Assembly (NCBI GenBank): GCA_019058295.1
Contig: JAHPZI010000028.1
Location: forward strand, 128,001-192,000
Length of the DNA stretch: 64,000 bases
Origin: Promethearchaeota archaeon
GTDB lineage: Archaea > Asgardarchaeota > Lokiarchaeia > Sigyniarchaeales > SOKP01
Direction of reading: 5' to 3'
Shown here: positions 12,534 to 47,214 of the stretch, one piece after another
Layout of the letters: each line of letters begins with the position of its first letter
Numbering within the stretch: position 1 is the first letter of the stretch
Notes under the pieces: generated by a model
Seen by the model: only the letters and a program-made list of their open reading frames with translations
Told to the model about the DNA's origin: nothing
Databases searched by the model: none
Program-made: the position numbers and the translations under genes

Positions 12534-15500
12534 TTATTCAATTACTTCCATAGGTTTTCCATGGTGCTCTGGGATCGACTGTGCGCCACATGATGAACCC
12601 ATCCAGCAAACCAATTGGTTACCTTCTTTATGCATCGGCTTACCACAATGCATTGGTAAGTCTTGTTCAGCACCACATTCTACACACTTTAATTTTCCCA
12701 CTGTTTTTTCAACCTCCTTTTTTGAATTAATTATTTCTTCATTTTTTTCAATTTCAATATAGTTCTCGGGATTTTTTTTAAATTCAGCAACGCATGATTG
12801 ATTGCAAAAATAATATTTTTTTCCGTTATATTCATGTTCAATCCATTCTTCTGGCTTCCCCTTCATGCCACATACAGGATCCGTAACGAGCTTCTCTTCC
12901 TCTATGCCCTTATGCATTAATTTTGGATCAATGTTGCCAAAGTCCTTATATTTTTCAGGATCTCGTTTAAATTCTACTTCACATGATGAGCTGCAGAAAT
13001 AATATCTCTCACCATTATATTTATACTCAATTGATTGGCTAGGTATTATTTCCATTCCACAGATAGGATCGATTACTTTTTTCTCCACTAGTAATTTTTC
13101 TTCTTGTAGTTGCTGTTCAGTTTTAGGTTCATATCTCTTTAATAATAATGCATTTGTTACAACAGAAACAGAACTTGAAGCCATGAAAATTGCTGCTAAA
13201 TAAGGAGGAAGAAAATATCCAGTAAAGGCAAATAATAATCCAGCTGCTAAAGGAATTCCAATAAGGTTATATATAAATGCCCAGAAAAGGTTAGTAATCA
13301 TCTTTTTATATGTTTTCTGAGATAAATTAATTGCCGCAACCACATTTCTTAAATCTCCTCGCATAAGAACGATATCAGCTGTTTCAATAGCTACATCTGT
13401 CCCAGATCCAATTGCAATTCCAACATCTGCCTGTGCCAATGCAGGGGCATCATTTATTCCATCTCCAACCATAGCAACTTGTATATTATCACCAGAATCT
13501 TGGAGTTTTTTGATGGTCAATGCTTTTTCATTAGGTAATACTTCAGCTAAGATATGATTTTCATCAAAGTTTAAATCCGTTCCAATACTCATCGCGGTTT
13601 GTTTATTATCACCAGTTAACATATATATATCCATTCCTTTCTCTCGTAATTTTTCAAGAGCATAAGGAGCTTGATCTTTTACTCTATCAGCTATACCGAT
13701 GATCCCTTTAATTTGATCATCTATACTAACTAACATTGTAGTATTCCCTTTTTCTTGGTTTTCAATGAATTTAGAATTATATTCAGTAAAATCTAAATTA
13801 TTTTCTAAAAACAATTTTTCATTACCAATTAAAACTCGTTTATTATCTATTTTTGTTATTAGCCCTTTTCCTGGTATTGCATCAAATTCACTGGGAGACA
13901 CTAATGCTAAGCCTTCTTGATTTGCCTCTTCAATAATAGCTTGCCCAAGAGGATGCTCAGAACCCATCTCAGCACTTCCAGCAAAATAAAGAATGTCTTT
14001 TTTTGTTAAACCATTTCCTGTTAAATCATTTTCAGAATAAATTATTGTAACTTTTGGTTTTCCAATAGTTAAAGTACCCGTCTTATCAAAAACAATTGTA
14101 TTAATATTGTTTACAGATTCTAAAGAGTCACCACCTTTCATGAGAATACCATTTTCGGCACCTTTCCCTGTTCCAACCATAATTGCTGTGGGGATTGCTA
14201 ACCCTAAAGCGCACGGACAAGAAATTACTACTATTGATGTAAAAACTAATAACGCAACTTCAAGACCTAAATTTGCTATAAAAAACCAATACAAAAATGC
14301 AAGAGTAGCTGTTATAATTACAATCGGTACAAAATAACTACTTACTTTATCAGCCAAACGTTGTCTTGAACCTTTTCGAGCTTGAGCATCTTTAACAAAA
14401 TCAATTATTTGAAAAAGGAGAGTATCTTTCCCAATTTTTTCAGTTCTCATTTTAATTAATCCAGTTTGATTTACAGTAGCTCCTATAACATCATCACCAA
14501 TTTCTTTTTTAATATACTTACTTTCACCTGTTATCATAGATTCATCAATTTTAGTCTTACCTTCAATTACTTTACCATCAACCGGTATTTTTTCACCAGG
14601 TCTAACAATTAATGTATCACCTATTTCTATCTCTTCAATAGGAATTTCAATTTCTTCACCATCTCTTAATAATGTTGCATTCTTTGGTTGTAACCCTATG
14701 AGTTTTTTTATAGCTTCAGATGCCTGGCCTTTTGTTTTATGTTCTAAATATTTCCCTACTAATATAAATGCAAAAATCATACTCATGGCATCATAAAACA
14801 CTTCACCAGAAATAAAAAATGTAGTCATAACTGAATAAAAATAAGCTGTCGCCGTTCCTAAAATAATCAACACATCCATATTTGTCGTCCGATTTCGCAA
14901 AGATTTATACGCGCCCTTTAGGAAAAAAGATCCTGATATTGCGAAGTTAAAAGTTGCTAGAATCGTTAGGATTAGATTTCGTGTAAAAGTAATAGGTACA
15001 ATAAAATTTATTGGAGTGATTACTGCTGCAAATACTAATGAAATTATAAGAAGGATCAAACGATTTTTCATTTCTTTTTTATGCTGTTCAATTTCTTTAT
15101 CAATGGCTCCCGCTACTTTTTCTATTTTATATCCGAAGCTTTTAACGAGTGAAAAAATTTCATTTTCACTTAATTTTAATTCGTTAAATTCAATGAAGAA
15201 TTTTCTTGCTTCAAAATTGCTCCTAACATGCTGTATACCATTAATTTGTTGAATTTTATTTTCTAACATATTAAACTCATTTTCTGTAAGTGTATCAATG
15301 ATTCCAATGTCCATCTTCGCAAGCGATGCTTTATATCCCAAATTTTTAATAGCACTATTGAAATTATTATAATTCACTATCTTAGGATTGTATTCAACAG
15401 TTGCTTCTTCATTTGCAAAATTTACAACAGAACTATTAACCCCCTCTAGTCCTTTTAGTTTAGTTTCTATTTTTAACGCACAGGAAGCACAAGTCATCCC

Positions 15501-15542
15501 ACCAAGTTTTATTTTAATTTTTTCTTTAGCTTGTTCTTCTAT
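12534..15542 (-). CDS. copA: Cu(I)-translocating P1B ATPase with N-terminal HMA, two C-terminal YHS domains and a Cys/His/Met tail; start extended to ATA 15542 (ORF track: ATG 15497)
   Basis: [29 protein letters not shown]...MxxSS; DPICGM/DPVCGM...YYFC. The upstream in-frame [15 protein letters not shown] completes the HMA domain. Confidence 0.95.
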
Positions 15543-15758
15543 TTTATTTCACCTCGGTTTATCATAAAAAAATATCTAATGAGATTATTATAAGTTTTGT
15601 TTATATTTTGTAAATATAGCCTCTCTAATTCTCCTTCAGAATCAAGAAATGTTCTCAGATAACTCACCATATAAAAATAATAATTTTTTCGAATAATGAT
15701 TGCAAATGTCGTTTTTTCTCTGTTACCATTATTTTAAATTCAAAGATATTTTTTATAG

Positions 15759-15798
15759 ATATTACCTTGAAGTATATATAGAAAAGTATATATTTAAA
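15759..15798 (-). promoter_or_regulatory. Promoter/operator copy 1 of the copper island
   Basis: ATATTACCTTGAAGTATATATAGAAAAGTATATATTTAAA; 35/40 identical to 16694-16733; TTTAAATA TATA-like box on the minus strand. Confidence 0.7.
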
Positions 15799-15994
15799 AA
15801 TTATCTTTATAATTAATAAAAATATAATGAATCTCACTTTTATCTTAAATTCTGATAAATTTTATTCTAAAATTCTATTTTGCCCCATCTTCTTTCTTAA
15901 AATATTAATGTTTCAGTAAAAATCGTATTTTTAATTTTTTATTAAGGTCTAGAAATAATAATTAAAAAAAATTGGTTTGTTTTTTAAAATTGGT

Positions 15995-16294
15995 TTAAAT
16001 TTCACTTCCACAATATGGGCATAATTTCAATGTTTTATCGTCTAATTCTTCACCACAATTAGGACAAAAATAAGGATTCTTTTCTTCCATCTCTTCAATC
16101 AAGCCAACTTTTGGGGATTCTTGATTGGATAATGCAAAATCTTTATTCTTACTTGTTCCTCGAAATAACAGGTAAATAAGAATAATTACAATTAAAAGAA
16201 AAATAAAAAAGCCCAAAATCATGTAAATCCATATATTTGGATCCCAACCCATCATTGATCCATCCATGTGATCATCCATATGGTCAAAAATCAT
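15995..16294 (-). CDS. Small membrane protein: His/Met-rich N-terminus, one TM, C-terminal Zn-ribbon
   Basis: MIFDHMDDHMDGSMMG; TM; CPNCG...CPYCG; SD AGGAG. Confidence 0.8.
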   Translation of the reverse strand: MIFDHMDDHMDGSMMGWDPNIWIYMILGFFIFLLIVIILIYLLFRGTSKNKDFALSNQESPKVGLIEEMEEKNPYFCPNCGEELDDKTLKLCPYCGSEI

Positions 16295-16328
16295 TTAATC
16301 AACTCCTTTTTATTTAAATTATTTTTCA

Positions 16329-16625
16329 TTATTTATTCTTATTTTCCACAGTTTTAACAGATGTACTCTCGCTGTAATTATGTCTTACCAATAAATAAAG
16401 TATTAAACCGATTACATTAAGAATAAAAGCAATTATTAACCACGTTTCAGAATTAGCGATTCCTCTTCTTATGGCATCTTTATGGACATAATAAGCAATT
16501 ATTATGCTTACAGTGAAATAAATTATCCACCATAATAACATAAAGATCCACCAAAATGGACCAAATATATAAATCCACCAATCCATCATATCATACCCAT
16601 CATGATGATTTTCATCAAAAATCAT
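16329..16625 (-). CDS. Small membrane protein: His/Met-rich N-terminus, PLDc_N-like TM hairpin
   Basis: MIFDENHHDGYDMM; YVHKDAIRRG...WLIIAFILNVIGLILYLLVR; SD AAGGTG. Confidence 0.8.
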   Translation of the reverse strand: MIFDENHHDGYDMMDWWIYIFGPFWWIFMLLWWIIYFTVSIIIAYYVHKDAIRRGIANSETWLIIAFILNVIGLILYLLVRHNYSESTSVKTVENKNK

Positions 16626-16693
16626 ATTAGCACCTTTTTTGACAATAGTTTTTTATTTGTATAATTTAGTTTTCTATTTTATTGATTTTATTT

Positions 16694-16733
16694 ATATTAC
16701 CTTGGGGTATATATGATAAAGTATATATTTAAA
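16694..16733 (-). promoter_or_regulatory. Promoter/operator copy 2 of the copper island
   Basis: ATATTACCTTGGGGTATATATGATAAAGTATATATTTAAA, in the divergent gap between the small-protein operon and the regulator. Confidence 0.7.
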
Positions 16734-16828
16734 TATAATTATTATTTTATATAAAATAAGAATAAATATAATCAACAGGGAAAGTCATTTTTTTTTACCT
16801 TAACTCATAAATTAAGGTGATTTGCTGA

Positions 16829-17272
16829 TTGTTAGAAAAGAATGAAATTAAAGTTCAAAATCTTACAAGGTTTTATACTTTAGCGTTGTTGAAATCAAAA
16901 AAGTCGGTTACTGGCTATTATGTTCTAAAACGACTTGAAGCAGATCTAGGAAAAACAGCCAGTCCTACATATGTTTATGACTTTTTAAAAAAGCTTAAAT
17001 CCGAAGGATTTATTAAAGATGTTCAGATTCCAAAGTCAAAGCGATCAGGTGGTTATCAACTTACTCCTTTAGGTTCGAAATTTGTCGATAGAATCTTTAC
17101 TCGATTTGATAACTTAATAGAAGTAGCAATCCAATCAAAATTAAAAATTTGTGCAAGTTGTGGTGTCAAGCTTTATGATAATTTTTACGTTGAAAAGATT
17201 GGAGGTAAAGAGTTGATTTTCTGTTGTGAACATTGTGCAATGGCTTATAAAAATTTTAATCACAATCATTGA
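16829..17272 (+). CDS. PadR-like winged-helix regulator with C-terminal TRASH-type metal-binding domain (probable copper sensor)
   Basis: TGYYVLKRL...SPTYVYDFLKKLKSEGFI...YQLTPLG; CASCG...FCCEHC; divergent from the cop genes. Confidence 0.8.
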   Translation: MLEKNEIKVQNLTRFYTLALLKSKKSVTGYYVLKRLEADLGKTASPTYVYDFLKKLKSEGFIKDVQIPKSKRSGGYQLTPLGSKFVDRIFTRFDNLIEVAIQSKLKICASCGVKLYDNFYVEKIGGKELIFCCEHCAMAYKNFNHNH

Positions 17273-17375
17273 AAAGAACTATGTGAAATAACAAACGTTT
17301 CCCTCAATTTCAGAAGATATGAGCTGAATTTCTTTACTCTTTTATCTAGAATGAAGTTTTAAAAAAATTATACAC

Positions 17376-17759
17376 TTATTTTTTTTTCTCACGGTATACT
17401 TTAATCGCTTCTTTTAATCCATCTGCAACCATAACACTACAATGAATTTTAGGTTCAGGTAATCCACCCAAGGCCTCAACGATTTCCAATTTAGTAATTT
17501 TTTCTGCATCTTCTAAAGTTTTCCCTTTTGCCATCTCGGTGGCAATGCTGGATGAGGCTATAGCTGCTGCGCATCCGAAGGTCTCAAATGAAATGTCATC
17601 AATAATTTCTTGTCCACTTTCTTTTTTTACCTTAATATATACGTGCATATAATCTCCGCATTCAGCACTTCCGGCCGTCCCTACAGCGTCAGCATCTTTC
17701 ATTTCTCTTTGATTTCTGGGATTCTTGAAGTGTTCTAGTACTATATCAGTATAAATTAT
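17376..17759 (-). CDS. iscU: Fe-S scaffold IscU/NifU, copy 2; start extended to ATA 17759 or ATT 17756 (ORF track: 17702)
   Basis: CGD, GCAAAIASSS, KIHCS. The upstream in-frame YTDIVLEHFKNPRN is the conserved IscU N-terminus. Confidence 0.9.
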   Translation of the reverse strand: MIYTDIVLEHFKNPRNQREMKDADAVGTAGSAECGDYMHVYIKVKKESGQEIIDDISFETFGCAAAIASSSIATEMAKGKTLEDAEKITKLEIVEALGGLPEPKIHCSVMVADGLKEAIKVYREKKK

Positions 17760-17843
17760 TAAACACCTCTCAATAAAATATTTATTTACAATTTTAAAAT
17801 AGGTTTCAAGGATTTAAAACTTAATGTTTAGGAAAAGGAGAAC

Positions 17844-18230
17844 TTATTTTTGTTTTTCACGATACTTTTCTATCGCTTTATGTAATCCATCCGCAGCTAA
17901 ATTGCTACAGTGCATTTTGATTGGTGGAAGACCATCTAAGGCATCAGCCACATCACTTCTAGTTATCTCTAATGCTTCGTCCAATGTTTTCCCTTTTGCC
18001 ATCTCAGTGACCATACTTGAAGTAGCTATAGCAGCCCCACAGCCGAAGGTTTGAAAAGAAATATCATCTATTTTATCTTCTTTTACCTTAATATAAATAT
18101 ACATAAGATCTCCACATACAGGATTGCCAACCTCACCGACGGCGTCAGCATCCTCCATTTCACCCATATTTCGGGGATTCTTAAAATGTTCCATTACTTT
18201 ATCAGAATAAATTATGACCACCTTAATCAA
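17844..18230 (-). CDS. iscU: Fe-S scaffold IscU/NifU, copy 1 (true start may be 18221, 18215 or 18212)
   Basis: YSDKVMEHFKNPRN, NPVCGD, GCGAAIATSS, LPPIKMHCS. Confidence 0.95.
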   Translation of the reverse strand: MIKVVIIYSDKVMEHFKNPRNMGEMEDADAVGEVGNPVCGDLMYIYIKVKEDKIDDISFQTFGCGAAIATSSMVTEMAKGKTLDEALEITRSDVADALDGLPPIKMHCSNLAADGLHKAIEKYREKQK

Positions 18231-18522
18231 AAGATAAATAATTATAGTTAAAAATTTAATGATTTTGGATAATAATAATTCATTTTATCAAAATTATTAA
18301 AAACCTAATGAAAAAGTTTATTCAAAAAAGTAGTTAGTGTTGTTTTTAATATTTTATAAATAATAAATTTAAAACAGCTCATTCATATTTTAGATAAATA
18401 ATTGATATAATAGAATATTTATGAATTCCAATGAAATTTTTTAAAAATAATAAAAAACTTTCTATTGTATGTATATTTTACATTATTTAACACATTCAAT
18501 TTACAAAATTGACTAATGATTT

Positions 18523-19536
18523 GTGAGGAAGCCCATGAAATATTTTCAAAACGTACTGAAATTAATTGGTAGAACCCCTTTAGTCCGCATCAATAAAATT
18601 AATCCGAATAAAAATGTTCTTATGTTGGCTAAATTAGAAAAATACAATCCAGCAGGTTCCGTGAAAGAAAGAATAGCTATAACTATGATAGAAGAAGCTG
18701 AAAAACAAGGAATTTTAACCAAAGATAAGATAATTATAGAACCAAGTTCTGGTAATACTGGAATTGGATTGGCATTGGTTTGTGCAGTAAAGGATTATCA
18801 ATTAGAGATCGTTATGCCTGAAACGATGTCGATTGAACGCCGTAAGATAATGACGGTTTATGGAGCAAAAATAACATTAACTCCAGGAGATAAGGGGATG
18901 GATGGTGCAGAGGATTACGTTGAAGAAATAGTATCGAAAAATCCAGATAAATATTTCTATCCACATCAGTTCTCAAATGAAAATAATCCCCTTGCACATT
19001 ATAGATATACGGCTGGAGAAATAATTAATGATACAGATGGGGAATTAGACGTATTTATTGCAGGTTTGGGTACATCTGGAACATTAATGGGTGTTTCTAA
19101 ACGATTAAAAGAGTATAATCCTAAAATAAAAGTTATAGCAGTTGAACCAGTTCCTAATGCTCCTATTCAAGGTTTAAAAAGCTTAAAAACTTCATATGTA
19201 CCAGCGATTTACGACGAATCAAGAATAGATGAGAAAATTTATGTTTCAATGGAAGATGCCGAACATTTATCTCGAATGTTAGCATTACAAGAGGGCATTT
19301 TTTGTGGTATCAGTTCGGGAGCAGCTATGCATGTCGCTCTTGAAACTGCTAAAAAAATGGATTCTGGAACTATAGTCGTTCTTTTACCAGATGGAGGTGA
19401 AAAATATATCTCTGATCCAATATTCACTCCGGAGAAATGTCTCGCCTGTCAATACCAGTGTAAAGTGACAACGCTATGGACCGAAGATTACATAAAATCT
19501 ATTTCTGAATGGTGGGAAAAAACAGAATCTAAATAA
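18523..19536 (+). CDS. cysK: Cysteine synthase (CysK/CysM family, PLP) with Cys-rich C-terminal extension; start possibly ATG 18535
   Basis: IGRTPLV, NPAGSVKER, EPSSGNTGI, GLGTSGT, GISSGA, PDGGEKY. Confidence 0.9.
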   Translation: MRKPMKYFQNVLKLIGRTPLVRINKINPNKNVLMLAKLEKYNPAGSVKERIAITMIEEAEKQGILTKDKIIIEPSSGNTGIGLALVCAVKDYQLEIVMPETMSIERRKIMTVYGAKITLTPGDKGMDGAEDYVEEIVSKNPDKYFYPHQFSNENNPLAHYRYTAGEIINDTDGELDVFIAGLGTSGTLMGVSKRLKEYNPKIKVIAVEPVPNAPIQGLKSLKTSYVPAIYDESRIDEKIYVSMEDAEHLSRMLALQEGIFCGISSGAAMHVALETAKKMDSGTIVVLLPDGGEKYISDPIFTPEKCLACQYQCKVTTLWTEDYIKSISEWWEKTESK

Positions 19537-19623
19537 CTCCTTTTATTATATTTTAATAGAAATAGAGAAATATTTTTAAAAATTTCTTCGAAAAGATTTA
19601 AATATATAGTAGATAAATTATAA

Positions 19624-19908
19624 ATGATGACAAAAGAAAAAGGCATTGACAAAGAAAGTCTATTAAGTTATATAAAAAAGGCAATTAAGTTATTATGTGA
19701 AAACAACTTATCTGAAGTGGTAATTTTATCATCTTACAAAATAAATTCTGTTCTAAAGGAGAATTTCGGCGTTAACATAAAAGTCGATAAAATTGGGAGA
19801 ATATTAAGCGGTATAGCTAAGCGAAATCAATTAAAAAGATTAAGTACCTCAATACCTAAATACAAATTACGAATATCTAATTTCTCCAGTTTGAAATTTA
19901 AGATTTGA
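19624..19908 (+). CDS. Small basic hypothetical protein, possibly winged-helix
   Basis: 94 aa, K-rich, helix pattern SSYKINSVL...KIGRILS; overlaps the convergent gene by 11 bp. Confidence 0.6.
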   Translation: MMTKEKGIDKESLLSYIKKAIKLLCENNLSEVVILSSYKINSVLKENFGVNIKVDKIGRILSGIAKRNQLKRLSTSIPKYKLRISNFSSLKFKI

Positions 19909-21229
19909 TTATTTTTTTTAATTTTTCAGTTGCTAAATTCATTTCTTTATAAGTTTCTTTAAGATTATTCAGTTCTGTGTTCAATTTTTCAATTTCATTT
20001 GTAATATTCTGCTCTAAAGATGATATATCCGTTGATATGATATTCTCTATTTTATTAGAGAAATTTTCTGTCTCGTTTGAGACTTCTGTGATGTTTTCTG
20101 AGGTCTTGTTCACTGATTCTTCCAACTTAAAGGTTAAACTGCTAGAATTGCTAATTTTATCTGAAAGGTCTTTTAAATTATTTTCTATGTGATTCATAAT
20201 ATTCTTAAAGTTTGTTTCTACGAGGTTATTTAAATCGTTCAAAATCTCGTCTTTAGATGAAGATAATTGGGTTATTAAATCTCTTTGGGCGTCAATCCGA
20301 ATATCTAAATACATAGATATATTTTCCTTAAAGTTTTCAGCAATTTCATCTAAATTTCTTTTAAACCAGTTTGCTACATTGGAAATTCCGTCAGAGATTT
20401 TACCTTTCATATTACTCGTTGAATTTTTCAGAAGCTCAGATCCGGTTAATGCCCCATCTCTAATATCTTTAGTCCAGGTACCTAATTGATGTTCAAATTG
20501 ATCCATAAATAAATCTGCAAATTTTGAAGTTCCTTCTTGAAATCCTGAAATTATTGGTCCTAGGGCGAGTATAGGTTCTTTTGACATAGGGATCTCTTGG
20601 AGATCATCAAGAGGAGATTCCGCCAATTCATTAATTTCTCTGATTAGGATTGGTGCTTTTTTCTGAGTATCTTCAACTAATTTTTGAACCCATTTAAAAT
20701 AGTCAAGAGTGCTTGGAAATTCCAACTCGTATTCAACTTTATGATATTCATTATTTTTATCGTCGGAAGAATCATTTAATCTATAAATTTCAAAACCTAA
20801 ATTCCCTTCTTTACCCATTAAAGTGTGATCGAAAACAACATAAAAACCATAGGGTTTTTGTTCATTCTGGAAAAAGGAATGGTGGGTTTTGATTGCTGAA
20901 TCAGAAAAAAATAGCCCCCATCCTGGGTGGGATGAGTACCAACCTACTATATTCATTTTTTTGCTAGCATATCTATTTTCAATTTCAGAAAAAGTATTAT
21001 AATCATCTGAATTAAAACCTATTGATATTTTTTTTCCATGAGTGATAGGTATGGCATTAATAAGATCAATATCTTTATCGTTTAATTTACCAATGCAAAT
21101 TCCCATCACCTCAACACTTTCGTCTAATGCTTCATTTCCAAATCTTAAAACATGCGTTATCATGTTTCTAAACGCCTCTTTTTTAATTTTTATCTTTCCT
21201 TCTCCTGAATTTTCTTTTTGTGTCGGCAT
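19898..21229 (-). CDS. Inactive MPN (MPN-) domain plus long coiled-coil/helical tail
   Basis: EVMGICIG...VGWYSSHPGWGLFFSDSA: first Zn-ligand His replaced by Ser, Asp replaced by Ala; heptad-rich C-terminus. Confidence 0.85.
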   Translation of the reverse strand: MPTQKENSGEGKIKIKKEAFRNMITHVLRFGNEALDESVEVMGICIGKLNDKDIDLINAIPITHGKKISIGFNSDDYNTFSEIENRYASKKMNIVGWYSSHPGWGLFFSDSAIKTHHSFFQNEQKPYGFYVVFDHTLMGKEGNLGFEIYRLNDSSDDKNNEYHKVEYELEFPSTLDYFKWVQKLVEDTQKKAPILIREINELAESPLDDLQEIPMSKEPILALGPIISGFQEGTSKFADLFMDQFEHQLGTWTKDIRDGALTGSELLKNSTSNMKGKISDGISNVANWFKRNLDEIAENFKENISMYLDIRIDAQRDLITQLSSSKDEILNDLNNLVETNFKNIMNHIENNLKDLSDKISNSSSLTFKLEESVNKTSENITEVSNETENFSNKIENIISTDISSLEQNITNEIEKLNTELNNLKETYKEMNLATEKLKKIIKS

Positions 21230-21234
21230 TTTAG

Positions 21235-22689
21235 TTATTCACCCCCTCCTTCTAGATTTTTAATTTTATTTAATAAATCCTCCTTCTGAGACTCCATTTC
21301 TTTTAATTTATCATTTAAAGATTTAAAAGTGGCTTCAATTTCAGATGATGATGAATCATAATTCGATAAAAATTCTTGTGTTTCATTACGGTAATCAGTA
21401 AATTTATTTAATATATTAGCTATTTTTTCTTTTAAATTGCTTTCAATTTTTCCACAAAATCCCCTTAATTTTTCTGAAGTTAACCTTTCTAAAGATTTAG
21501 TCTTTTCAGATATTTTTTCTAAAGATAATCTTTGTTGAGCTAAACTTTCTGAAGAGAGTTTATTTTTTTGATTAATTTCTGTCAATTTATTTGAATTTTC
21601 AGCGAAATTTTCACTAATTTTATTTAATAAACCATTGACGTTTTGTTCAAATAATTCATTTATCTGTGTAGGGAGTTCTTCTTTTAATTTTTCAATAAAA
21701 TTTTTTGCAATTTCATTGTTTTTATCAAAATTTTCAAACTGATCACCTATATAGGTCTCAAGATCATCTAGCTTATATTTTAATGAGAATTTAAAATTAT
21801 TCTGAAGCTTATCAATTCCTTTCCTTAAATCATCTTTTAAATCAACTAAATCATCTCTAATTTGAATATTATTTTCCATTATATTTTTTATAATCTCTTG
21901 GCTCCAAGAGTTTAAAAAATTTATTAGTGGTTCAATAGATAATTGTAAAAATTGCGAAATTCCATTATGTAAAGCTGAGAGAATATCTTCTAAATTTAAT
22001 TGGGGCTTAGCCGCTAATAATTCCCTTTTGCTTGGAAAGAAAATCTCGCCGAAAAGATCAGGGGTTTCGTTAATCTCCAAAATTGGGGGTTCTTTTGAGT
22101 GAATACAATTAATTAATTCCATTATTTTAAAGTAATAATCTATACTGTCAGGAGGTTCTACAATAGTTTCTACCTCATGATAATCTGATTTTTGACCCTT
22201 GGACGGATCATCAAGTCTAAAAGTTCTAAAACCTAAATCTCCCTGATTTTCTAAAAAAGTATGATCAAAAACTATGCCTATAGCGCTAGGATTTGGAGTT
22301 TGCCAACCCAGCTGATTTATTTTGTCTACTCCCGAGAAAAAAATGTTTAACCCAGGATGTGAATGGAACCAACCAACACTGAAAAGCCCCTTATCAGCGT
22401 ATTTTTCATCTATTAGAGCAAAAGACACATAATCTTCAGGAGCAAAAGCAACCTCAATCGAACCGCCATGCGAAATTGGCACAGCATCTTCAACAATTAT
22501 ATTTTTAATGCCCCTTTTATTTGGTTCACCTTCAAGGCGTCCAATAAGTATTCCCATTACTTCCTTGTATTGTCTCTGATCTCTTACTCTATTACCAAAT
22601 CGCAATATATGGACGAGCATTTTGTAATAGGCAAGTGGTTTGATAAGGACGGACCTATCGCTCTCTTGATGACGTTTACTCAAATTCAT
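21235..22689 (-). CDS. JAMM/MPN+ metalloprotease plus long coiled-coil/helical tail
   Basis: EVMGILIG...VGWFHSHPGLNIFFSGVD is an intact E-HxH-x7-S-x2-D motif. Confidence 0.9.
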   Translation of the reverse strand: MNLSKRHQESDRSVLIKPLAYYKMLVHILRFGNRVRDQRQYKEVMGILIGRLEGEPNKRGIKNIIVEDAVPISHGGSIEVAFAPEDYVSFALIDEKYADKGLFSVGWFHSHPGLNIFFSGVDKINQLGWQTPNPSAIGIVFDHTFLENQGDLGFRTFRLDDPSKGQKSDYHEVETIVEPPDSIDYYFKIMELINCIHSKEPPILEINETPDLFGEIFFPSKRELLAAKPQLNLEDILSALHNGISQFLQLSIEPLINFLNSWSQEIIKNIMENNIQIRDDLVDLKDDLRKGIDKLQNNFKFSLKYKLDDLETYIGDQFENFDKNNEIAKNFIEKLKEELPTQINELFEQNVNGLLNKISENFAENSNKLTEINQKNKLSSESLAQQRLSLEKISEKTKSLERLTSEKLRGFCGKIESNLKEKIANILNKFTDYRNETQEFLSNYDSSSSEIEATFKSLNDKLKEMESQKEDLLNKIKNLEGGGE

Positions 22690-22795
22690 TCACTTTTTTT
22701 TAAAATTTAGATTTGTTAATTCTTATTATTAATATAATTTAACGATTTTAAAATACTATTTATAGAATAAAAAAGAGTAAAATTTTTCCTAAATA

Positions 22796-23524
22796 TTAAT
22801 GCTTATGAGGTATTTCGCGACCGCAGTCTGGACAATATTTAGGAATCAAATTTTTACCGCAATAAGGGCAAAATTCTGATGATTTTTCACTAACTTCCTC
22901 TGTCGAAACTACAGCAGATGATTTTTCACTAACTTTTTCTGTCGAAACTTCAGCAGATGCAGGAGTTTCTTGAGGAGTACCTCCTGGAATTGAAGGTAAT
23001 TTTCTTTTTGTTTTTATAGTAGATGAAGCAGATGCCTGTTCTTCTTTTGCTCTTTCAGCAGCCACTCTTTCTTTAAATGCTTTTCGCTGTTCTTCTAACT
23101 TCTCCTCTTGAGTTTGTTCACCTTCTTGTTTCACCCAACCAGGACCCTTAAAAGCACCTTTGATCTCACTTTGAGGTACTTTTTCTAATTCAACTTTTTT
23201 CGTTTCAGCAACAGGTGCAACAGCTCTTTTTTCTTGTTTTTTACTAATTGCTTGTTTTATTAACGCTTGAGTTGTTTTCATAATTTGGTGTGGGTTTATA
23301 TTTGGTAGCGTAATAGTTCGTAGGACCCAGCCAACAATATAATTCTGATTTGGAAAGTCTCCATCTCCCATTTCAGCATCTTTATATACATAAGAATCGA
23401 TTACGTCCTTACCTTTAAGAAGGCGAGACGCCCAGCGTTTATTTATAAGTCCCAGTTGTAATCGATAAGAAGTACCTGAAATTCCCAACTGGGATGATAA
23501 GGGGATGAAACCTTGTTCTGTAAT
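22796..23524 (-). CDS. Hypothetical protein: globular N-domain, low-complexity linker, C-terminal Zn-ribbon; start extended to ATT 23524 (ORF track: TTG 23488)
   Basis: CPYCG...CPDCG; SD AAGGTGA 6 nt before in-frame ATT-ACA-GAA-CAA. Confidence 0.75.
   Translation of the reverse strand: MTEQGFIPLSSQLGISGTSYRLQLGLINKRWASRLLKGKDVIDSYVYKDAEMGDGDFPNQNYIVGWVLRTITLPNINPHQIMKTTQALIKQAISKKQEKRAVAPVAETKKVELEKVPQSEIKGAFKGPGWVKQEGEQTQEEKLEEQRKAFKERVAAERAKEEQASASSTIKTKRKLPSIPGGTPQETPASAEVSTEKVSEKSSAVVSTEEVSEKSSEFCPYCGKNLIPKYCPDCGREIPHKH
22878..22955. repeat. 39-bp in-frame tandem duplication
   Basis: gatgatttttcactaactt...gtcgaaact.cagca twice, encoding SAEVSTEKVSEKS / SAVVSTEEVSEKS. Confidence 0.9.
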
Positions 23525-23686
23525 GATATTTCACCTTATTATTATTGTAATATTTTGATTATGATTATTATAATAATTATAATTTTACTAATTTATAATT
23601 TTATATGCAAGAAAAAGCATAAATAGAAAAAGTTTTATTATGAATCAACAAGCTTAAAAATATAATAAAAAAACTCATAATAAAAA

Positions 23687-24643
23687 ATGACTGTAATTAT
23701 CCCAAAAAAAGCTTATTTAACTATCGTAGCAGCGTCTGTTAGATTTGCAAATCCTAAGATTCCCTTTGACGATTGGTTAGAAATATATGGTATTTTTACG
23801 GGAAAATCTTCCAAGAATGGTAAGGATTTAATAATTACTGAAGCATATAATATAACACACCAAGTAAAAAGGGAAGAGGATATAATAGACAAGGTATATT
23901 GGTCTGATGAAGATTATATCTCATTTAGTATGATTGATGACGATGCTTTTTCAAGAGGCGAATATACAGTAGGATGGTACCATTCTCATCCTGGTCACAG
24001 AGTAATGATGACTAGTTTAGATATTCGCACTACAGCAACTTATCAACAATATAATCCTCTTGCAGTTTCTCTTGTATTTAATCCACAACGATTAACCAGA
24101 CAAATTGAAGTTCCAGCAAGAAAAGGAGATCCCGAACTAAGATTGGATTGCGATCCCGGTTTTAAAATTTTTAGATTGGGCAATCCTGAAGATGTTGATT
24201 CAAATTACCATGAAGTATATGATTATAAGATTGATGGATTTGAAAGTGAAGAGCAATTAGTAGAATATGCTAAAAAGTTCGCTATAGAAATAACAGATTT
24301 ATTTCCTAAAGATAATGTTGTTGAATCATATAATAATTACGTCAATGATAAATTAAGACAATTAAACTCATTATTGATGGGAACTGAAGATTATTTGAAA
24401 TCATTAGCTCGAAAAGATGAAAAAAGTAGGATCCCTGAAGTGTTAGAAAATCAAAAAAAAGAGATTAATAAATTTGTAGCAGAAACATATGTTAAAATAG
24501 AAAATATGAAAGAATTCCTTGATTATCTCGAATATAAAGAAAAAGATGTTATCATTCCAAAAGTTAAGGACGTCTTATCCAATTGGGATGAAAATATAGC
24601 TAATTTAGATAAGAAATTAGATGAATTATCAAAAAAATTCTAA
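23687..24643 (+). CDS. JAMM/MPN protein with helical C-terminal tail (HSH-x7-T-x2-D variant)
   Basis: WLEIYGIFTG...VGWYHSHPGHRVMMTSLD; shares GFxxFRL...YHEV with the two MPN proteins on the other strand. Confidence 0.85.
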   Translation: MTVIIPKKAYLTIVAASVRFANPKIPFDDWLEIYGIFTGKSSKNGKDLIITEAYNITHQVKREEDIIDKVYWSDEDYISFSMIDDDAFSRGEYTVGWYHSHPGHRVMMTSLDIRTTATYQQYNPLAVSLVFNPQRLTRQIEVPARKGDPELRLDCDPGFKIFRLGNPEDVDSNYHEVYDYKIDGFESEEQLVEYAKKFAIEITDLFPKDNVVESYNNYVNDKLRQLNSLLMGTEDYLKSLARKDEKSRIPEVLENQKKEINKFVAETYVKIENMKEFLDYLEYKEKDVIIPKVKDVLSNWDENIANLDKKLDELSKKF

Positions 24644-28097: not shown

Positions 28098-29342
28098 ATG
28101 GCTAAAAATTCACGATCCGTATTAGTCGTAGGATTCAATACTCGCCCTCTCACTTATTCTTTAAATAAGGCAGGATATGAGGTATATGCAGTTGATTTTT
28201 TTGGCGATTTAGACTTATATCCAAATGTAAAAGATTGCCTAATCGTAATAAAAGAATTAGAAACTAATTATGATCTTTTAAGAAATAAGTATAGTATTTT
28301 TTTAGCTAATTTGACAATCGAGATATTACAAAAATATCCAAATATAGAATATTTAATAATAGGGAGTGGTCTAGATGATGCTTTTGAGGAAAGGGAGGTG
28401 ATTTTAAAGGAAATAAAAAAATATCAATATTCTATAAAAAATTTAAATAACTCTATAGAATCAATTAAAAAAGCCAGAAATATCGAAATTGTGTATAATA
28501 TTCTGTCATCAAAAGGATATAAAATCCCCCTTACCCTCCCGTATGAAAAACTCAAATCAAAAGAAAATGTGTTGAGATATCCGTTTATTGTAAAGAAAAA
28601 AACGGGAGCCGGAGGTATTAACGTTTATAAAATGGAAAATAAAAGCAGTTTATCCTCCTTTTTACATACACAAGAGGCGAAAGGTTTTAAAGCATCAGAG
28701 TGGCTAATTCAAGAATTCAAAGAAGGTATCCCGGTTAGTTGTACAACAATTTCAAATGGAGAAGAATGCGAAGTGATTTCTATCAATAGACAAATTATTG
28801 GTTTAAAATTTCTAAATCCTCCTAAAGAATTTATGTATTGTGGCAATATTGTTCCTGCTTATTTATTTAAAGAAGATGAGGAATTAATTTCTGAAATTTC
28901 AATAATTTTAACTAAAGAACTCGGATTAAAAGGGATTAATGGATTTGATTATGTGTTAAAAAATCATTATCCTTATCTAATGGAGATTAATCCAAGAATT
29001 CCCGGTTCAATTAATGTTTCGGGAGCTGTCCTTGATCTAAACTTATTGGATTTGTATATTAAAAGTTTTGATGGAAGTAAATGGGACTATATTAAAAAAA
29101 AACTTAATTTAACTCAATCTCAAGGATTTGCAACCAAATTAATTATGTTTGCTCCTAAAGAAATATATAGAGATAAAATACAACAAATAAATCAATTTGA
29201 AAACATACACGATAAAACTGAGCCAAAAATTATATCTAAAGGTGAACCTATATGTACAATATTATATAAAGATAAGAACTTTTCAAGATCTTTTTTTGGA
29301 GCCTTAAAAATTGCGGATGAAATAAAGAAAATCATTGGTTAA
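28098..29342 (+). CDS. ATP-grasp ligase (COG2232-like)
   Basis: VVGFNTRP...VDFFGDLD, GAGG loop, IQEFKEG, GINGFDY, EINPR. Confidence 0.85.
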   Translation: MAKNSRSVLVVGFNTRPLTYSLNKAGYEVYAVDFFGDLDLYPNVKDCLIVIKELETNYDLLRNKYSIFLANLTIEILQKYPNIEYLIIGSGLDDAFEEREVILKEIKKYQYSIKNLNNSIESIKKARNIEIVYNILSSKGYKIPLTLPYEKLKSKENVLRYPFIVKKKTGAGGINVYKMENKSSLSSFLHTQEAKGFKASEWLIQEFKEGIPVSCTTISNGEECEVISINRQIIGLKFLNPPKEFMYCGNIVPAYLFKEDEELISEISIILTKELGLKGINGFDYVLKNHYPYLMEINPRIPGSINVSGAVLDLNLLDLYIKSFDGSKWDYIKKKLNLTQSQGFATKLIMFAPKEIYRDKIQQINQFENIHDKTEPKIISKGEPICTILYKDKNFSRSFFGALKIADEIKKIIG

Positions 29343-45636: not shown

Positions 45637-46185
45637 ATGGAAGATAAAGCAGAATCTGATGAAGATTGGAATTACCAATTCTTAGAAGAGTTGGTAGAGG
45701 ATGTGGAAGAAAATCAGAATATAAGGCAGTGTATTGAATGTGGAAAATGCATTGGCGAGTGCCCTGCTTCAAAAATCTCAGATTTTAATATAAGAAGAAT
45801 TATCCGAAAAGTCCTTCGAGGCGATAAGAGTGTCTTAAAAGATTCTGATATATGGTATTGTTTTTTATGCGAAAGATGTAAAAGAGTCTGCCCAAAAAAA
45901 GGAGTAAATATTCCATTACTCATTCTTAATTTGAGAAACGAATCGTTTAAAAAAGGATATGGGCCACGATATAATGATCTAACCAAATATGTTGAAATGG
46001 CAGAGAAATTTCTTACAAACGGAACTGTATTGGAAGACCCGTTAGATGGCTCATTATCCCCCGAGAGAATAGAGGAATTAAACGAAATCTGTAATTTCGC
46101 AAGAATAAAATATGTTTTTAAGGCAAGTGAAGCCAGTAAGGCACATAAAAAAAAAAACCTAAATAAAAAAAGAGTTAAAAAATAA
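45637..46185 (+). CDS. hdrC: Heterodisulfide reductase subunit C-like
   Basis: CIECGKCIGECP and IWYCFLCERCKRVCP; directly upstream of an HdrB-like gene. Confidence 0.88.
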   Translation: MEDKAESDEDWNYQFLEELVEDVEENQNIRQCIECGKCIGECPASKISDFNIRRIIRKVLRGDKSVLKDSDIWYCFLCERCKRVCPKKGVNIPLLILNLRNESFKKGYGPRYNDLTKYVEMAEKFLTNGTVLEDPLDGSLSPERIEELNEICNFARIKYVFKASEASKAHKKKNLNKKRVKK

Positions 46186-46206
46186 GAGATATCAAGTCTT
46201 TTTAAA

Positions 46207-47214
46207 ATGGAAATTAATAATTTGGCTATAGATTTAGAGGAAATTGAAAAGAGGTATGAAAATCCTTTAGATTTTTTTAGGGGAAAAAAACTTTGCTTGT
46301 TTAAGGCTTGTTTAGAAAAGTATTTTCCGGGGGTACGATTTGGAATTCAGGATTTCTTAGAAGAATTAGGTATGGAAGTTATCATCTGTCAAAATCAATC
46401 GTGTTGTTCAGGGACTTTTTTTCAAAGAAATTTGATCACAAGAGCCCAATTTGCAGCCATTAACGAGAGGAATATTAATGAAATTAATCATCAAGCCGAT
46501 ATTCTTTTAGTAAGTTGTAATGGTTGTTATAACTCTCTGTTAAGAGGAAGAGACTTTCTAAAAGATAATACTGTGAGAAAAAAAACACAAGATATTTTAA
46601 ATGATGTAAAGGAAAAAATGGGCGGTGAAAAATATCTTGGGCAATACGATATTTTAGAAAATCCAAAATTAAGAATAATCCATGATTTAGATTTCTTTTA
46701 TTTAATTAGAGATGAGCTTGTTAATACTCTGAAGTTTGGTTTAAAAGGAATTAAAATAGCTGTCCATTATGGGTGTCATTATTTAAATTTGGACAGAGAT
46801 AAAGACATAAACACTTATTTGAAAGATAAAACTAAATTAGAGGAACTCATCCGACTTTTTGGAGGTGTCCCTATCGATTACCAAGAAAGAGAATCATGCT
46901 GCGGATGGGGTGCCAGTCAAATAGTGATTCATCCTGATGATGCTTTAAAAGTTACTTATAAAAAATTGAAAAGCGCTGAGAATGTAAATGCTTGTTTTAT
47001 TTTAATGCCATGTCCCACATGTTTATATACATTAAGTAAGCCTGAATTTCGGGAAAGAATGCATAAAATATTTAACGATGAAGTAGAAATACCAACAATT
47101 CATTTAAACGAATTAATAGCCATTTTAAGGGGTTGCGAGGAAGAACGATGTATAACACTTAGGAGAAAATCTCCTCGTTTTAATCAAATATATGCTACAA
47201 TTACTCAAGAGTAA
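46207..47214 (+). CDS. hdrB: Heterodisulfide reductase subunit B-like (two CCG domains)
   Basis: SCCSG...CNGC; HYGCH...CCGWG...CPTC. Confidence 0.88.
   Translation: MEINNLAIDLEEIEKRYENPLDFFRGKKLCLFKACLEKYFPGVRFGIQDFLEELGMEVIICQNQSCCSGTFFQRNLITRAQFAAINERNINEINHQADILLVSCNGCYNSLLRGRDFLKDNTVRKKTQDILNDVKEKMGGEKYLGQYDILENPKLRIIHDLDFFYLIRDELVNTLKFGLKGIKIAVHYGCHYLNLDRDKDINTYLKDKTKLEELIRLFGGVPIDYQERESCCGWGASQIVIHPDDALKVTYKKLKSAENVNACFILMPCPTCLYTLSKPEFRERMHKIFNDEVEIPTIHLNELIAILRGCEEERCITLRRKSPRFNQIYATITQE

Follow-up and report, generated by a model that had tools for sequence, protein, structure and literature searches.

The question raised by this locus is whether an archaeon begins ordinary genes with ATA or ATT. 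The window, meaning the whole 64,000-nucleotide stretch that was analyzed (G000:C28:128001-192000), belongs to a metagenome-assembled genome (MAG) of an uncultured archaeon of the Loki type (Promethearchaeota), G000, which is 3.2 Mb in 30 contigs with a guanine-cytosine (GC) content of 30.7% and is 79% complete. Within the window, copA, two copies of iscU, and a conserved gene referred to here as gene 22796 each appear to begin at ATA or ATT behind a Shine-Dalgarno (SD) sequence. Taken together, the comparisons below make it very probable that these are real starts, that the SD-anchored AUA and AUU codons would be read by the ordinary initiator tRNA (Met-tRNAi), and that such starts would open at least about 2% of the genes of the genus.

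The four sites are all read on the minus strand and share one layout, a GGTG-type SD, a spacing of 6-7 nucleotides, and then an in-frame ATA or ATT. Spacing is counted in nucleotides from the last G of GGTG to the codon. ATA, ATT, and ATC are called ATH, and ATG, GTG, and TTG are called NTG. At three of the four sites no NTG lies ahead of the essential N-terminal element, and in copA and gene 22796 an in-frame stop is found two codons upstream of the start.

The copA coding sequence (12534..15542) encodes a P1B-type copper ATPase of 1002 codons, counted from ATA; an HMA domain is found at its N-terminus and two YHS/TRASH domains at its C-terminus. Its SD is GAGGTGA (15549..15555), which matches the 16S rRNA 3’ end ...GGAUCACCUCCU, and a TGA at 15551-15549 is in frame. 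The ATA start (15540..15542) lies 6 nucleotides after GAGGTGA, at spacing 7. The first NTG is the ATG at 15497, which is residue 16 and falls within G-M-T-C-A-S-C.

The coding sequence of iscU copy 2 (17376..17756) has 126 amino acids plus the stop. The SD is GAGGTG (17764..17769) and the start is ATT (17754..17756), with spacing 7, the fit to the NifU_N profile, and the ortholog codons all in its favor. The adjacent ATA at 17757-17759, with a spacing of 4, is a less likely start. The sequence after ATT 17756, TAT ACT GAT..., reads YTDIVLEHFKNPRN, and no in-frame NTG exists from the TAA stop at 17816 to the ATG at 17702. The coding sequence of iscU copy 1 (17844..18212) has 122 amino acids plus the stop. 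Its SD, AAGGTGGT (18217..18224), is kept in related strains from runs X2, X3, and X4. The ATT start (18210..18212) is at spacing 6, is preceded by an ATA at 18215, and is followed by YSDKVMEHF. Two alternatives are present upstream, a TTG at 18230 that has no SD and a GTG at 18221 that lies inside the SD.

Gene 22796 (22796..23524) encodes a conserved, lineage-specific protein of 242 amino acids that has a zinc ribbon at its C-terminus and is assigned to no family; its matches to DZR and Zn_Ribbon fall under the Pfam cut-off. The SD is AAGGTGA (23531..23537) with an in-frame TGA at 23533-23531. The ATT start (23522..23524) is at spacing 7, an ATC at 23527 precedes it, and the first NTG is the TTG at 23488. 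The initial annotation had described the SD, the ATA or ATT codons, and the in-frame stop or available NTG codons at each of these four genes, and all were read in the sequence as it had reported.

A loose scan of the whole window gave no strong ATH site besides these four. ATA 27992 and ATT 37316 are ambiguous candidates. ATT 28050 was rejected because an ATG at 28098 yields a normal N-terminus, and the NTG-free open reading frame (ORF) at 45714-46346 was set aside as low-complexity and probably a spurious antisense frame.

A trivial explanation would be that the real codon is ATG, hidden by faults in sequencing or assembly, by a mixture of strains, or by RNA editing, and ATA is indeed only one base from ATG. 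This is extremely unlikely. Over 15300-23700, a contig assembled independently from the probable source run shows no difference, at a depth of 17. In related strains, from the same study and from another one, the ATA of copA and the SD-ATA-ATT of iscU copy 1 are preserved, and no ATG was seen at these start positions in the source-run contig or in the related-strain contigs. Different species have ATT, ATA, or ATC at the same codons, and ATT would be left unexplained by editing, since no known editing converts U to G.

Orthologs were searched in 30 relatives from the genus, family, and order, and the codon aligned to the proposed start was read for each window gene. The aligned start of IscU, which lies immediately before Y-S/T-D/E-K-V, is ATG at seven loci, ATT at seven, ATA at one, ATC at one, and ATA-TTA at one. 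For iscU copy 1, three orthologs (L006, L010, and L009) have ATT at this position, with GGTG 7 nucleotides upstream and no in-frame NTG. The aligned start of gene 22796 is ATT in G000 and G007, ATA in G001, G004, and G009, TTG in G002, G006, G012, and G017, ATG in G010, G011, G015, and G016, and GTG in G013. In most of these orthologs the shared in-frame TGA precedes the start by two codons, and after the start T-E-Q/K-G-F-x-P-L is conserved. The aligned start of copA is ATA in G000, ATG in six genomes, and GTG in one. The N-terminal extensions are thus present in the orthologs, with ATG, GTG, TTG, ATA, ATT, and ATC interchanging at the aligned starts. In iscU, copA, and gene 22796, the stretch from the ATH codon to the next NTG is conserved in amino acids and shows synonymous changes among orthologs.

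The strength of the SD differs with the start codon. For this comparison the starts in the three gene families were set by protein alignment and not by the SD. ATH starts (n = 19) have a median SD score of 15 and ATG starts (n = 18) one of 10 (Mann-Whitney p = 2e-4, a significance overstated by the kinship of the genomes), with two or three copA rows being ambiguous. Among the 12 named public MAG records of gene 22796, AGGTGA stands with ATT or ATA and AGTGA with TTG or GTG, with no exception. A weak codon paired with a strong SD, as seen in these alignments, is the pattern expected of real initiation sites under selection.

Protein domains place the starts at the same codons. In both IscU copies the Pfam NifU_N match begins at residue 2 and profile position 2; it covers residues 2-126 of copy 2 (profile 2-125 of 127) and residues 2-122 of copy 1. 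In CopA, HMA residues 12-71 correspond to profile positions 3-62 of 62. Outside these genes, the uS10 match (profile 1-98) begins at residue 5, and no NTG follows the start until codon 65 of 101. The zinc ribbon of TFB occupies residues 13-45, with the next NTG at +55. The flavodoxin match (profile 1-159) begins at residue 5 with the next NTG at +82, that of HisA (profile 1-227) at residue 2 with the next NTG at +16, and that of an Old-yellow-enzyme (OYE) family protein (profile 2-338) at residue 6 with the next NTG at +110. A similar picture is found at the ATH starts of a RagA-like GTPase, a Ras-like GTPase, Usp, and AOR. In general, the Pfam models start at profile position 1-3, a few residues past the ATH codon, and the next NTG lies deep within the domain. 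The inference of the initial annotation that gene callers truncate the N-termini is supported by these Pfam matches.

It could still be argued that each gene begins at the first downstream ATG, GTG, or TTG and that the upstream stretch is a coding-like untranslated leader. A canonical codon is available downstream in every case, and iscU copy 1 also has the TTG and GTG upstream of its ATT. These downstream NTG codons have no SD, and the stretch that they would leave untranslated is conserved as protein, with synonymous changes, and completes the Pfam domains from profile position 1-3. Truncation would cost CopA the first strand of its HMA domain, copy 2 of IscU 17 conserved residues, uS10 60 of 98 profile positions, and TFB its zinc ribbon. 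A leader of this kind is therefore very unlikely.

ATH starts extend beyond the window. The genome-wide test set consisted of the first 40 codons of each of 2620 non-overlapping stop-to-stop ORFs of at least 100 codons in G000. A codon was counted as SD-led if a 6-mer of GGAGGTGATC was found at an aligned spacing of 5-9, and codons with an NTG within -7 to +9 nucleotides were dropped. The in-frame codons with an SD were 77 of 3438 for ATG, 32 of 1513 for TTG, 5 of 710 for GTG, 29 of 2556 for ATA, 28 of 2639 for ATT, 2 of 944 for ATC, and 8 of 5158 for AAA. The combined 57 of 5195 for in-frame ATA and ATT compares with 12 of 7676 for the same codons out of frame (odds ratio 7.1, p = 9.5e-13) and with 34 of 14663 for five AT-rich control codons (odds ratio 4.8, p = 2.6e-13). 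No enrichment of SD-led ATA and ATT was found at internal codons 60-100 of the long ORFs. The spacing of SD-led ATA and ATT peaks at 7-8, like that of ATG, and the ATH spacing is the narrower of the two (55% versus 35% at spacing 7-8, p = 0.01). This enrichment is specific to frame and spacing and supports the inference of the initial annotation.

The candidates fall in 54 distinct ORFs, 35 of which have no usable NTG upstream; in 31 of the 35, 10 or more codons separate the ATH codon from the next NTG downstream. When the SD was scored on a graded scale, SD-led ATA and ATT were in excess by approximately 45-60 genes, beside approximately 240 for ATG, 58 for TTG, and 19 for GTG, and the ATH share climbs as SD strength climbs. 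ATH starts therefore make up about 2% of the genes of G000 (approximately 45-60 SD-led genes), which is a lower bound, as starts with weak SDs escape this count.

The way in which ORFs are defined could produce a signal of this kind. If the TGA of GGTGA opens the frame, an SD will stand at spacing 7 of codon 3 whatever that codon is, a situation found in 18 of the 54 candidate ORFs. Such a bias is neutral as to codon. Where an in-frame GGTGA opens a long ORF (52 cases), spacing 7 is occupied by ATA in 14, ATT in 10, ATG in 7, and AAA in 5, and ATA and ATT together occupy 24 of 52 positions there versus 26 of 208 pooled flanking positions (p = 4e-7). The other 36 candidates are independent of an in-frame GGTGA, and the ortholog and Pfam evidence is independent of the statistic altogether, so an artefact of ORF definition has next to no probability as the explanation.

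Other near-cognate codons were also seen behind SDs in G000. CTG (3 of 201) and ACG (3 of 246) are slightly over background behind 6-mer SDs, and in two cases ACG stands at spacing 7 behind an in-frame GGTGA. This genome may make rare use of such other near-cognate starts.

Several observations weigh against this explanation of the sites. Weaker SD definitions (5-mer SDs, G000) give a modest enrichment of 1.3-1.6 fold, and some of the 57 candidates are chance internal matches, for example a site in DnaK. Judged on its own genome alone, iscU copy 1 could have a TTG or GTG start. The genes for 16S rRNA, aIF1, and the initiator tRNA were not found in the 79% complete G000 MAG, and those parts of the mechanism are taken from relatives. 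No RNA run is listed as holding this stretch of the window. Finally, the 400-kb samples of other families have little or no enrichment, and the term routine holds for the genus and not for the order.

Within the genus, the second species (G001, 800 kb) has 8 of 1106 in-frame matches and 3 of 1913 out-of-frame matches, with control codons at 0.2%. Beyond it, the signal is weak in G016 of the same family (3 of 683), 2 of 503 in G024, and 1 of 499, which is background, in G026, whose closed genome of 4.36 Mb comes from a sister family and has a GC content of 31%. These three counts come from 400-kb samples of low power, in which approximately seven matches are expected, and they are weak evidence for a lack of enrichment. 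A 400-kb sample of the GC-rich G027, also of low power, has a marginal ATH signal. AT pressure alone is insufficient to explain the habit, because G026 has the same GC content and is at background. The habit is strongest in the genus, and single-gene cases are scattered through the family. The initial annotation had called initiation at these codons routine in the lineage; this stands for the genus, with enrichment in G000 and G001 and about 2% of genes, while the order as a whole is not uniform, given the background count in the G026 sample.

Which components would read these codons can be considered from the relatives. The 16S rRNA 3’ tail was read as ...GGAUCACCUCCU in two of them, one from the same family and one from the same order, and the GGTG-type motifs are taken as true SD sequences because they match this tail. 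The initiator tRNA is canonical in eight genomes, with A1:U72, G29-31:C39-41 (the GGG/CCC stem), and a CAU anticodon. Two of these genomes are of the genus (G005 and G007), three are of the family (G011, G013, and G015), and the others are G019, G024, and G026. The gene in the genus (L231 in G007:C174 and L232 in G005:C236) contains two introns, neither of them at a canonical position: the first follows the anticodon arm and the second interrupts the T-loop, and ARAGORN misses the gene because of them.

Mitochondria read AUA and AUU starts through 5-formylcytidine at position 34 (f5C34), and a second dedicated initiator, or one with a modified C34 and altered decoding (UAU-type or f5C-like), could do the same here. 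Base modifications are not visible in DNA, the G000 MAG has no initiator tRNA gene to inspect, and ATA and ATT are far commoner than ATC behind SDs (57 versus 2), all of which leave some room for this idea. The scarcity of ATC may reflect the 31% GC content alone, and all eight initiator genes examined, two of them from the genus, have the canonical CAU arm. A lead toward a UAU-anticodon initiator, the sequence GGGCTTATAACCC present in five genomes, was rejected, as the one fetched locus (L225) has no T-arm and is not a tRNA. A tRNA-Met(CAU) gene from a tRNA array on contig C22 of G000 was also rejected as the initiator; it has A1:U72 but no GGG/CCC anticodon stem. A special initiator is accordingly judged improbable. 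Reassignment of AUA to methionine cannot account for the ATT starts. ATA is an abundant in-frame codon (approximately 2500 in the first 40 codons of the long ORFs of G000), the SD-led enrichment is limited to 5’ ends, and a tRNA-Ile(UAU) is present in the G000 tRNA array.

SD-anchored mismatch initiation by Met-tRNAi is the simplest model, because the initiator tRNA is canonical. A strong SD/anti-SD duplex, formed by GGTG(A) on the 16S tail ...GAUCACCUCC, would anchor the 30S subunit and set AUA or AUU, 7 ± 1 nucleotides downstream, in the P site. The ordinary Met-tRNAi (CAU) would then take the codon despite the third-position mismatch, and the first residue would be methionine. The weak codon would be offset by an SD that is stronger and more exactly spaced than ATG starts need. 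The arrangement would serve essential genes such as those for uS10 and TFB, in the genus and more thinly in the family. The factor aIF1 is reported to oppose the third-position-mismatch step in Sulfolobus and to make it dynamic in Pyrococcus (PMC6237735). We infer that Met-tRNAi is the decoder, that methionine is the first residue, and that aIF1 proofreading is tuned to permit the mismatch. Translational control at the ATH starts, which the initial annotation raised, is plausible and gains indirect support from the conserved non-canonical start that aIF1 has in relatives.

The aIF1 gene itself has an unusual start in the relatives. In the family of the window it reads AAAGGTTGTGA, two to three codons, ATT or ATC, and then AAA GAC..., with no NTG ahead of the zinc knuckle CPxCSFPKELC. 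ATT or ATC is found in nearly all sampled genomes of the family, and one genus is ambiguous between GTG and ATA. The start is ATA in four other Asgard families and in one genus of a fifth, CTG in one more Asgard family, and ATG, TTG, or GTG in the remaining sampled families. In the family with CTG (L278 in G088 and L281 in G099), no in-frame NTG or ATH precedes the zinc knuckle except for an abutting ATA, and CTG sits 7 nucleotides behind GGAAGGTG, which suggests a CUG start of aIF1.

Genera whose iscU, copA, and gene 22796 begin with ATG still keep the non-canonical start of aIF1, which therefore points to function rather than drift. The genes of the relatives suggest a negative feedback, like that of infC, in which aIF1 would set the tolerance of non-AUG initiation. 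A tentative extension, somewhat less probable than its opposite, is that aIF1 started by AUU, AUA, AUC, or CUG in seven sampled families acts as a start-codon stringency homeostat of Asgard archaea, with a relaxed set-point in the genus. Scarce aIF1 would lead to more use of non-AUG starts, that of aIF1 included. The relaxed set-point would have let AT-biased mutation turn dozens of ATG starts into ATA or ATT, with a full GGTGA buffering each. Were this so, the homeostat would either foreshadow eIF1 autoregulation in prokaryotes or be its convergent counterpart, and Asgard protein catalogues, including those of eukaryotic signature proteins, would be systematically truncated at the N-terminus.

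Near-cognate starts are known from other systems. The Escherichia coli genes infC (encoding IF3) and pcnB have bacterial AUU/AUA starts behind an SD. As proposed here, the mRNA is SD-led, the near-cognate AUH codon meets a normal initiator tRNA, and a proofreading factor opposes it; the likeness to infC extends to the proofreading-factor gene, aIF1, which itself bears a weak start codon in the Asgard relatives. In bacteria, however, AUH starts are regulatory exceptions in a handful of genes, whereas here they would open at least about 2% of genes, including those of a ribosomal protein and TFB, and the machinery consists of the archaeal and eukaryotic factors aIF1, aIF1A, and aIF2 in place of IF3. 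Vertebrate mitochondria also use AUA and AUU as regular starts for essential proteins in an AT-rich genome, but there AUA means methionine through a modified C34 and no SD exists, whereas here AUA is an abundant sense codon inside genes and initiation would depend on the SD. In eukaryotes, eIF1 is homologous to aIF1, is the gatekeeper against non-AUG codons, and likewise has an mRNA with a weak start site. Eukaryotes differ in that their ribosomes scan and rely on Kozak context in place of an SD, what is weak in the eIF1 mRNA is the context of an AUG and not a non-AUG codon, and AUA and AUU are among the poorest near-cognates. As summarized in the citing literature, the autoregulation of eIF1 works through the poor context of its start codon (Ivanov et al. 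2010, cited in PMC6237735; review PMC5666671).

ATT, ATC, and ATA are listed as initiators in NCBI table 11, and degenerate triplets have been treated in PMC5499595. A single rare ATT start codon has been proposed for the tubulin AtubA of a Kariarchaeaceae Asgard MAG (PMC13394414). In that case, too, the organism is an Asgard archaeon, the deposited protein is truncated at the N-terminus, and an ATT suitably spaced behind a ribosome-binding site restores the first beta-strand (PMC13394414). It differs in being a one-gene rarity, described without genome-wide or comparative analysis (PMC13394414). No systematic description of ATH starts was found in the literature, with the AtubA ATT as the sole match (PMC13394414). 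SD-led near-cognate initiation as such is known, but not its extent here, the reliance of essential genes on it in an archaeon whose factors are of the eukaryotic type, or the link to aIF1.

Gene callers of the Prodigal type admit only ATG, GTG, and TTG, and CopA, both IscU copies, uS10, TFB, the flavodoxin, and the small GTPases, among others, are deposited truncated or shifted for that reason. Asgard proteins are heavily mined for eukaryote-like features and are expressed for structures; AtubA needed a manual ATT correction (PMC13394414). The lineage is a natural system for the trade-off between SD anchoring and aIF1 proofreading, and for weak start codons offset by SD strength under AT mutation pressure. 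It also bears on whether autoregulation of the eIF1 type predates eukaryotes.

The genes between copA and iscU copy 1 have features of their own. An 82-nucleotide direct repeat with 77% identity is present at 15751-15832 and 16686-16767, with the core ATTACCTTGRRGTATATAT..AAAGTATATATTTAAA. Two small membrane proteins that are paralogs (15995-16294 and 16329-16625) each have one copy upstream, and their N-termini are rich in His, Met, and Asp. The copper/iron-sulfur cluster probably has in this repeat a common promoter and operator. A winged-helix regulator of the PadR type, whose C-terminus bears a TRASH-like Cys motif, is encoded at 16829-17272 on the plus strand, with a TTG start behind a 7-nucleotide SD (AGGTGAT), and is probably the metal sensor of the locus. 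In the strain from run X2, position 15542 is joined directly to 17845, with 209 other letters between, and this strain lacks the 2.3-kb cassette of the two small membrane proteins, the PadR-TRASH regulator, and iscU copy 2. In the strain from run X4, the SD region in front of iscU copy 1 is present twice owing to a 20-nucleotide insertion.

Two further observations concern tRNA genes of G000 outside the window. The array on contig C22 (G000:C22:30303-33335) contains 27 intron-less tRNA genes, densely packed in two divergent blocks. It includes tRNA-Ile(UAU), tRNA-Ile(GAU), and the non-initiator tRNA-Met(CAU), and some of its genes encode CCA. Unlike those of the array, the scattered tRNA genes of G000 are mostly intron-bearing, and the array may be mobile, viral, or foreign DNA. 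On contig C30, at approximately position 102640, an anticodon arm GGGCTTCAAACCC is followed by a T-arm-like sequence GGGGTTCGATTCCCC, and the locus resembles a tRNA-Sec (UCA) gene.

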